64,000 nt of DNA, from positions 1,529 through 65,528 of the IMG/VR virus record IMGVR_UViG_2852409570_000001; one strand, 5' to 3'. Below, one piece after another: positions 9,902 through 10,796 of the stretch. The notes below the pieces were generated by a model. It saw only the letters and a list, made by a program, of their open reading frames with translations, was not told the origin of the DNA and searched no databases. The DNA comes from a virus. A program made the translations under genes and the position numbers. Position 1 is the stretch's first letter, and every line of letters begins with the position of its first letter.

Positions 9902-10129
9902 AAAATATTCCCCTTAAATTTTATCCTTCTAATCAATTGTAAAATAATACTTTGTTTCTATAAACAAGAAATTAACCTTATAAATTTCACGTACTATATC
10001 CGATGTATAAAACCAAATTTTGCAATAAAACCTATTCTACCATCCGTCCCCTTATCCTCTAACCAAAAAAGTAGTAAATCCTCTATTTATTCCTCTATCT
10101 TAGTGATTCATTCCCCCATGAGTTAAACA

Positions 10130-10780
10130 CTCTCATATTTTTCTGCTTTTCTTCGTAATTAAGCTTGACTGAAGGTCTTGAGGGTTTTTATCATGTGGGA
10201 ACGATTATGGAACACGGCTGGAAGGCAGATTTATCCCCTACTTTGAAAGATCACAAAAAAGTAATCGATCAAAATAGATGGATAAGCGTCTTGTTTTCGC
10301 CATGCGGTCACTTATAAGGTATCCGTATGTATAGACCCTGTTCACTCAGCGATTTTCACCGCATACATCCTTTTACTATGGCTTGTCCTTGTAATATCGT
10401 CCCTACACGACAAACTGAATGTACTCCCTAGCACCGTAATGCTAACGATAACCACCCGAACCTTTTAGAGAATCGTCCCTGGGCAAGTTCTCGCCCTCCC
10501 TCACCAGAAGAACAGGATTCCGATGAGGGGTGCTGTTTTTGTAGGCGCATACTCTGTACCCCCTGCACGACCAACAGCTAGCCACGCCGTAACACGTTCC
10601 CGCTAAATAAATGTATGCAGCACGGAATTACGGCTTATCAGTTTTTATTTACGTGGTATCAGGCAATTCCACGCGAACAAAAAACAAAAAGGCATCTCCA
10701 ATCCTAAATGGCCTGTAGATCCACAAGACTTCTAGGTTTAGAGATGCCCGCTATATATCTTTTGACTACAAAAAATACAA
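10130..10780 (-). ncRNA. Putative large structured RNA / replication-control region
   Basis: No ORF >=60 aa in any frame, visibly higher GC than flanks, multiple stems; stem 10498-10529 pairs fully only on the - strand (G:U pairs). Confidence 0.5.
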
Positions 10781-10796
10781 TTCTAGCATTTACTAG

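Follow-up and report, generated by a model that had tools for sequence, protein, structure and literature searches.

The Bacillus subtilis plasmid pLS20 replicates from an origin of about 1.1 kb, oripLS20, which lies with the partition module on one side and the conjugation module on the other, lacks a rep gene and contains all information for autonomous replication (PMC8557374). The replicon was first described, as DNA, by Meijer et al. in 1995 (as cited in PMC8557374 and PMC4490491); pLS20 is placed in class E of the theta-replicating plasmids, and its minireplicons are reported to replicate in polA5 and recA4 hosts (PMC4490491). DnaA boxes have been proposed in the origin (Val-Calvo et al. 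2021, PMC8557374), and of its mechanism 'very little is known', in the words of the same 2021 study (PMC8557374). In these accounts oripLS20 is described as DNA with an unexplained mechanism, not as an RNA gene (PMC8557374, PMC4490491).

How replication proceeds without an initiator protein has been a question since the 1990s for pLS20, and probably also for the widely used ori1030 vectors. The minimal replicon of B. thuringiensis pHT1030 is about 1 kb long and is not known to contain a Rep open reading frame (ORF). Its origin, ori1030 (Lereclus and Arantes 1992, PMID 1738313), is the basis of pHT304/pHT315 and the pBS0E vectors.

Here we describe an element at about 9955-11010 of a 64,000-nt stretch of viral DNA (the window; IMG/VR record IMGVR_UViG_2852409570_000001, positions 1,529 to 65,528). 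Its minus strand is a conserved, structured, multi-domain RNA kept by compensatory evolution. We consider it probable that the element is a plasmid-maintenance replicon, forming a new subfamily of the Rep-independent pLS20-type (class E theta) module with a large folded RNA as its active principle. The analysis adds evidence that the working part of a known, mechanistically unexplained replicon type is a large structured RNA.

A conserved RNA fold on the minus strand

The window is identical (100%) to part of pBCK802 of Bacillus cereus K8 (71,854 bp; window coordinate = record coordinate - 1528). A preliminary description, made from the letters of the window, had pointed to an ORF-free, structured, G+C-raised element next to parA repeats. 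No ORF of at least 60 aa is indeed present in 9901-10973, the longest having 50 aa (10165-10317, plus strand), and the G+C content is 0.47-0.53 at 10300-10699 vs 0.25-0.30 at 9800-10099 and 0.27-0.29 at 11000-11500. The size of ~650 nt given there has to be revised: the transcribed unit measures ~820-850 nt (~10800 to ~9955) and its conserved folded part covers ~10164-10749 (Table 1).

Folded as minus-strand RNA, 851 nt of the element gave a z score of -6.2 against shuffled sequences, and consensus folding yielded -96.5 kcal/mol with 99 pairs for the minus strand vs -37.4 kcal/mol with 58 pairs for the plus strand. Compensatory double changes were found at 37 of the 99 pairs predicted by RNAalifold for 53 representative relatives. 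In the 141-nt core, for which five helices were specified explicitly, 99.3% of 680 cells are paired, and at 17 of the 34 pairs both partners have changed; 500 column shuffles never gave an equal result, and sliding the partners by 1-3 columns left 35-50% paired. About 20% of the paired cells are G:U, which turn into C-A mismatches on the other strand, and a plus-strand reading is only 79% canonical. The stem at 10498-10529, previously described as pairing fully only in the minus sense through G:U, is kept in the 53 relatives with compensatory changes, and its U:G pairs exist only in that sense. The terminator-like hairpin with U-run near an extended -10 promoter is likewise there, and the hairpin covaries across subfamilies. 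For the 3' part of the U-tract (10673-10681), a long-range helix with 10337-10345 is predicted. Long unpaired stretches of the core are invariant, among them GGUUAUCG, AGGGA, AGGACAAGCC, GAGUGAAYAGGGUC and UAGGGGAUAAGUCUGCC. A 3' terminator at 9950-9969 was considered and rejected, as the site is merely a 6-bp A/U hairpin.

A search of the element against Rfam 15 gave no family at gathering score, the ROOL, GOLLD and Bacillus-plasmid motif families included, and up to E 10 returned only microRNA and small nucleolar RNA noise on A+T hairpins. The earlier suggestion of a large non-coding RNA outside the known classes thus agrees with an expressed, covarying RNA that matches no Rfam family. The word undescribed applies to the RNA, of which we found no account; the replicon type had already been described, as DNA (pLS20, class E, 1995).

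Expression

A discrete RNA contig of 844 nt was found in each of two unrelated RNA-seq studies, one of a cultured organism (X2; contig depth 180, flanks 0) and one of a rhizosphere metatranscriptome (X10; depth 27). Both contigs extend from positions 10799-10801 of the window to 9981-9982, the point at which their plasmids lose similarity to the window and at which homology with many relatives stops as well, and continue for another ~24-29 nt. In a third study (X12) a contig of 2,336 nt covers 8870-11155, including the neighbouring 225-aa ORF. The contigs delimit the transcript at ~10800 and ~9955; RNA-seq contigs cannot prove transcript ends, and both positions are approximate.

Among the stranded reads of a further data set (X23), 97% run in one direction, and first mates in the peak bin lie on the plus strand; under the usual library convention this is minus-strand RNA, in agreement with the G:U evidence. 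Depth is 1928 at 10281-10417, 510 at 10418-10554, 6-43 in the other bins of 10007-11102 and 1.5 at 9870-10006, with a weak same-strand signal extending to ~11100 (11102). A sharply bounded piece of ~170 nt (10284-10457) thereby stands 40-300x above most of the remaining ~840-nt RNA. Read starts pile up at 10457, and adapter read-through at 10424-10454 means that the fragments are short. The piece begins 4 nt ahead of the invariant GGUUAUCG and finishes within the long 3' hairpin, in its 5' arm, which suggests specific processing to a stable core and hints at a role for this core beyond simple priming.

Relationship to the pLS20 origin

The pLS20 origin was chosen for comparison because it is a known Rep-less Bacillus replicon. 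When 86 kb was searched with R1, the covariance model of the core, the best non-self match lay in oripLS20 (13.7 bits; positions 65183-65335 of the record), at E 0.043, or E 7e-4 with oripLS20 as the only search space. R1 matched nine of nine pLS20-family origins at the homologous place and on the homologous strand (6.9-19.8 bits; best E 9e-5, L090). The small plasmid L002, a carrier of the element, and pLS20 have three exact 11-12-mers in the same order (ACAGGACAAGC, ATAGCAAGGCA, AAAGTCAAGAGA).

The anatomy of the two families is colinear. From the 5' end both have a covarying leader hairpin, UUUUUUGU..GU(U)CAC, GUAAA(A)UAAA(AA)CUGA and a UACG hairpin; in the middle a covarying helix (CUAUGGCC/GGUCAUGG in pLS20), AGGACAAGC, AAAAGG and a covarying GAAA hairpin; and towards the 3' end a long covarying hairpin with UGAUCGAUU, then AAAGUCAAGAG. 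Within the 5' part, leader hairpin and U-tract are followed in pLS20 by a GUAAAUAAAAACUGA-like box at the place it occupies in the window element, GUAAAAUAAACUGA being the colinear counterpart of the region 10638-10672. Both modules are ORF-free, of ~1.1 kb, without rep gene and beside a partition operon; in pLS20, alp7A stops ~40 bp short of the origin, and the G+C content rises to 0.53 vs 0.30.

The two differ in that sequence identity is beneath the reach of BLAST and nhmmer, the pLS20 core carries an insertion of ~90 nt, the 3' domain of pLS20 is another one, and in the window DnaA boxes are absent around the element. The hosts differ too: conjugative plasmids of the B. subtilis group on one side, phage-plasmids from the B. 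cereus group together with mini-plasmids of four genera on the other. OripLS20 has a single consensus DnaA box (TGTGGATAA), which is part of a small hairpin (3161-3180 of L084, about 65160-65179 of the pLS20 record); the stem of this hairpin covaries among relatives (GTGG/CCAC, GTGT/ACAC, GTGC/GCAC), its loop differs, and the box itself is not conserved.

Carriers of the element

In PLSDB the 1.1-kb stretch has matches in 122 plasmids, for 76 across at least 80% of its length; most are plasmids of 50-90 kb from the B. cereus group. Four of the carriers, pALH1, pE33L54, pLVP1401 and pBWB404, are all listed as 'NA: no reported minireplicon' by Zheng et al. (PMC4219350). A 28-nt pattern from the core matched 12 genome contigs and 63 IMG/VR contigs; a match in a Eubacterium metagenome-assembled genome (L016; 46% identity) was discarded as chance.

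Small plasmids of 4.5-7.7 kb from four genera (Bacillus, Peribacillus, Paenibacillus and Planococcus) carry the element at 58-70% identity (Table 1), in L002-L005 inside an ORF-free gap of ~1.2-1.7 kb. Their proteins comprise a resolvase, an XRE-type helix-turn-helix (HTH) protein, a ~190-aa HTH-like/ribbon-helix-helix (RHH)-like protein, a ~210-aa coiled-coil protein and, in three of six, HTH_36. No Rep family was found among them with Pfam and NCBIfam, and none has a homologue in the window. A hidden conserved Rep downstream of the element was rejected as an explanation, the downstream proteins being unrelated between carriers. The RNA element is thus the only module common to the phage-plasmids and the mini-plasmids. 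In every carrier it lies beside partition or stability genes.

Diverging from the RNA, the mini-plasmids have a gene set of the ~190-aa protein (HTH-like N-terminus, RHH-like C-terminus), the XRE-type HTH protein and usually the ~210-aa coiled-coil protein (L002 1676-2958; L003 5516-7228; L005 267-1929; L017 5214-6881; L013 1192-2275). None of these proteins has a known family, and the set may be a partition or control system. For another element-bearing contig, L015 of Peribacillus frigoritolerans (11,382 bp), a coverage of 6799, taken from the assembler's contig name alone, hints at a high-copy plasmid.

Table 1 Features of the RNA module and small plasmids carrying the element. Positions are those of the window; sizes are given for plasmids; -, minus strand; +, plus strand.
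Feature	Position or size	Strand	Evidence or remark
Primary transcript of putative replicator RNA, ~820-850 nt	9955..10800	-	RNA-seq contigs, fold z; both ends approximate
Candidate promoter, extended -10 TGCTAGAAT	10780..10788	-	Sequence; not conserved throughout the relatives; RNA contigs extend ~20 nt further upstream
Leader hairpin GGCATCTC (10741-10748) / GAGATGCC (10691-10698), then U-tract (10663-10690); terminator/attenuator-like	10663..10749	-	Compensatory changes in small plasmids and pLS20 family
Hairpin GUGG-AAUUGCCUGAUA-CCAC, then GUAAAUAAAAACUGA	10638..10672	-	Stem covaries: GUGG/CCAC to UGAG/CUCA or GGUGC/GCACC
Lineage-specific inserted hairpin, missing in most small plasmids	10585..10636	-	BLAST pieces of L002 and L005 join straight across; alignment
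Helix CCCUCAUCGGAA / UUCUGGUGAGGG, conserved loop	10498..10529	-	12 pairs; several changed on both sides, many U:G
Most conserved core (model R1), five helices including UACG-loop hairpin 10425-10448 and GAAA-loop hairpin 10349-10362	10321..10461	-	Covariation
Stable, highly abundant ~170-nt RNA species	10284..10457	-	X23 stranded raw reads
3' domain, long hairpin CUUAUCC..UGAUCGAUUAC..GUGAUC..GGGGAUAA	10231..10285	-	Compensatory changes; UGAUCGAUU common with pLS20 family
GUCAAG, 3' boundary motif of conserved RNA	10164..10169	-	Invariant in 53 sequences; AAAGTCAAGAG common with pLS20; BTB_15p: AAAGTCAAGGG
A+T-rich, purine-rich tail with CTAAGATAGAGGAA (10090-10103); candidate DNA-opening/synthesis-start zone (inferred)	9982..10163	-	G+C 0.27-0.36
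Small hairpin RNA gene with divergent promoter TTGAAT-17-TAAAAT (10797-10825), likely control RNA	10797..11010	+	Promoter scan, conservation
L002, small plasmid carrying the element	6,868 bp		
L003, small plasmid carrying the element	7,300 bp		
L004, small plasmid carrying the element	7,561 bp		Planococcus
L005, small plasmid carrying the element	7,523 bp		
L017, small plasmid carrying the element	~7.4 kb, circular		Peribacillus
L013, small plasmid carrying the element	~4.55 kb, circular		Paenibacillus

In the tail, CTAAGATAGAGGAA is kept in the small plasmids, and a close variant, CTAAGATAGTGG, occurs in BTB_15p, the 15-kb plasmid of Bt407. The divergent small hairpin RNA has its own terminator and a near-consensus plus-strand promoter; promoter hexamers and hairpin are kept in all subfamilies, including L013 (TTGAAT-17-TATAAT) and BTB_15p. 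Its expression was not seen in the X23 reads. At 10893-10971, six X23 reads jump 77 nt between the twin-hairpin copies of this small RNA gene; some strains therefore carry a single hairpin copy, like the small plasmids.

Function and alternative explanations

We derive a probable role in replication from the homology to a 1.1-kb fragment that is sufficient for pLS20 replication, from the Rep-less carriers and from the replication-protein gene that takes the place of the element in phage IEBH (see below). The RNA-primed or RNA-controlled replicon of the preliminary description gains support from the first of these, replication itself being what we infer. Under the replicon reading, host RNA polymerase would make the replicator RNA, and the leader hairpin with its U-tract, possibly together with the divergent small RNA, would limit the amount of full-length RNA and so set the copy number. 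Working in cis, as R-loop/primer or as scaffold, the folded RNA would lead the host primosome to load the replicative helicase in the A+T-rich tail (~9982-10163); a plasmid initiator protein would not be required, and DNA polymerase I probably not either. The neighbouring parA operon would then segregate the copies. The divergent small RNA may be antisense to an upstream-initiated leader (countertranscript-driven attenuation) or may act otherwise. We put forward only tentatively a stronger version, an 'RNA Rep', in which the folded RNA is the initiator and its multi-domain core, processed to ~170 nt, opens the origin or recruits the primosome, perhaps with self-processing into a primer end.

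Several observations weigh against the replicon reading. The nine pLS20-family matches are not independent of each other, the match to pLS20 is weak, and nhmmer with the family profile gave no match to the pLS20 origin. Colinear 8-mer chains were marginal, with 3-8 on the same strand vs a shuffled mean of ~3.5 and maximum of 5-8, so that weight was given instead to the match of the covariance model and to the identical 11-12-mers. A search for the DnaA box (TTATCCACA, at most one mismatch) found none in 9500-12000, in contrast to what has been proposed for pLS20; for that family the boxes are a suggested feature and not a proven one. The extremes of the cumulative GC skew of the 71.8-kb plasmid lie away from the element, at record 6-8 kb and 59 kb; the skew is dominated by the long co-oriented phage operon and is not informative for this origin. 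Replication could also be driven by the DnaD-domain/DnaC-like pair that this plasmid encodes. In the mini-plasmids, a winged-helix HTH_36 protein (L003 and L017 by scan, L004 as a homologue) and the XRE-type HTH protein, found in six of six, mean that there may be an unrecognised small initiator protein. As to the RNA, its 5' end is approximate, the promoter is a candidate and the library strand convention is assumed. Function in this subfamily is assigned from homology and context.

Some of these points would suit a large plasmid or phage non-coding RNA whose role is not replication but, for example, immunity, incompatibility, anti-defence or regulation; the true replicon would then be the DnaD/DnaC-like module or an unrecognised mini-plasmid protein. 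The discrete, stable ~170-nt species resembles a trans-acting RNA, the window holds the DnaD/DnaB_2 and IstB-like pair, the GC skew does not indicate the element, and the mini-plasmids have an XRE-type HTH protein in common, some of them also HTH_36. We nevertheless regard this as unlikely, since the homologous pLS20 fragment alone replicates (PMC8557374), L013 at ~4.55 kb has no other replicon-like feature, the element always adjoins partition or stability genes, and a rep gene fills the same slot in phage IEBH. At the module's left edge, a segment of ~80 nt (window 9966-10045; L094 3501-3582) is common to phages IEBH, 250, PfNC7401, PfIS075, LY4 and 0105phi7-2. In the plasmidial prophage IEBH, seen in window orientation, it is followed by a minus-strand 'replication protein' gene (464 aa; no Pfam match) and then by a plus-strand actin-like partition operon, the slot held in the window by the minus-strand RNA element and the plus-strand parA operon. 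This arrangement can be read as a swap of replicon modules, for which the segment may have been the recombination junction; the flank was examined in IEBH alone.

It is improbable, in our view, that the element is an origin at the level of DNA, with its hairpins acting in DNA form (as cruciforms, or as sites for host factors, the primosome or single-strand initiation) while transcription is incidental or merely activates the origin. Such an origin would accord with the description of the pLS20 origin in DNA terms and the DnaA boxes proposed there (PMC8557374), with the adjoining A+T-rich tail, and with the fact that inverted repeats function on both strands. Here the two strands are not equivalent, however, given the G:U share and the 79% canonical pairing of the other strand; the UNCG and GNRA tetraloops, like the unpaired stretches that are conserved, are what is typically seen in RNA, the RNA is abundant and strand-specific, DnaA boxes are absent near the element, and the single consensus box of pLS20 sits in a hairpin with variable loop.

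That the RNA regulates the 225-aa gene (9224-9901) in the manner of a riboswitch, or as its long structured 5' leader, is very improbable. The gene is co-oriented with the RNA and is included in the X12 contig, but the genes downstream are unrelated among carriers, which already contradicts this reading, homology with many relatives stops at 9982, and the X2 and X10 contigs end ahead of the gene. A decayed protein-coding gene, for which nothing speaks beyond the missing ORF, is practically dismissed by the covariation in the alignment, with variation that is compensatory and not codon-like, 99% of core cells paired at 58-70% identity across genera and no conserved ORF.

If the replicon reading is right, it would assign a replicon to a large set of phage-plasmids of the B. 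cereus/B. thuringiensis/B. anthracis group for which no minireplicon was known (PMC4219350), explain the Rep-less replication of plasmids of 4.5-7.7 kb in four genera, and supply a missing non-coding replicon marker for plasmid-typing schemes. If the family works through its conserved, expressed, structured RNA, the question of replication becomes directly testable with compensatory mutations, and one more large RNA with a concrete cellular task would join a short list. Should the RNA itself be the initiator, large structured RNAs would gain a new functional class, common to pLS20, probably the ori1030 vectors, B. cereus-group phage-plasmids and Bacillales mini-plasmids.

Comparison with other systems

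The earlier likening to ColE1 holds as an analogy. ColE1-type (class B) replicons are also Rep-free, with a long folded transcript made at the origin by host RNA polymerase and a control region that contains a small RNA gene. The element matched neither the RNA I nor the RNA II family of Rfam (gathering score or E up to 10), and its structure is far more elaborate and conserved than that of RNA II. The small-RNA promoter (10797-10825, plus strand) is divergent and not clearly antisense: it is directed away from the abundant RNA, the contigs of which stop at ~10800, and only weak same-strand reads extend to 11102. Furthermore, the pLS20 relative replicates in a polA5 host, whereas ColE1 requires DNA polymerase I (PMC4490491 for pLS20).

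With the pAMbeta1/pIP501 family (class D) the element has in common Gram-positive hosts, a leader with terminator-like attenuator before the replication function and a small RNA in the control region; those plasmids require RepE/RepR and DNA polymerase I (PMC4490491), and Rep is absent here. The large RNAs ROOL, GOLLD, OLE, HEARO, raiA and the Bacillus-plasmid motif resemble it in size (500-850 nt), in their many helices and conserved unpaired stretches and in being borne on phages or plasmids. The element differs from them in having no Rfam 15 match up to E 10 and in that homology points to a function, replication.

The ori1030 replicon was compared only indirectly, through BTB_15p, a possible but unconfirmed relative of pHT1030. 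BTB_15p (L007 1400-2330) has kept the small-RNA region, two of the hairpins (leader hairpin and first hairpin) and, at the 3' side, the AAAGTCAAG boundary. The ~550 nt in the middle (G+C 0.42-0.47) cannot be aligned to the core, R1 has no match there, and a RepA_N-like ORF of 346 aa adjoins upstream. BTB_15p may be a third subfamily or a chimera, and may be related to pHT1030/ori1030.

Gene context

pBCK802 is a siphovirus-like phage-plasmid with genes for terminase, portal, tail, holin and lysin and an AimR-type switch. The statement that it has no visible Rep gene is correct for plasmid-type Rep in the window; genes at 50678-52193 encode a DnaB_2/DnaD-domain protein together with an IstB/DnaC-like ATPase, a replication pair of phage type. 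The element is flanked by the gene for the 225-aa protein (9224-9901, minus strand, co-oriented with the RNA) and by the parA operon, which starts at 11556 (plus strand) with repeats in front; no initiator gene lies in or beside the module. The 225-aa protein corresponds to phrog_6640 (unknown function, E 5e-110), and searches with Pfam and NCBIfam gave no match for it, leaving the earlier idea of a LAGLIDADG-like protein without support.

A strong plus-strand terminator (11106-11143; 10-bp stem and TTTTTTGTTT) immediately precedes the parS-like repeats, ~100 nt past the point where the small RNA presumably ends; the X12 contig stops close to it, at 11155.

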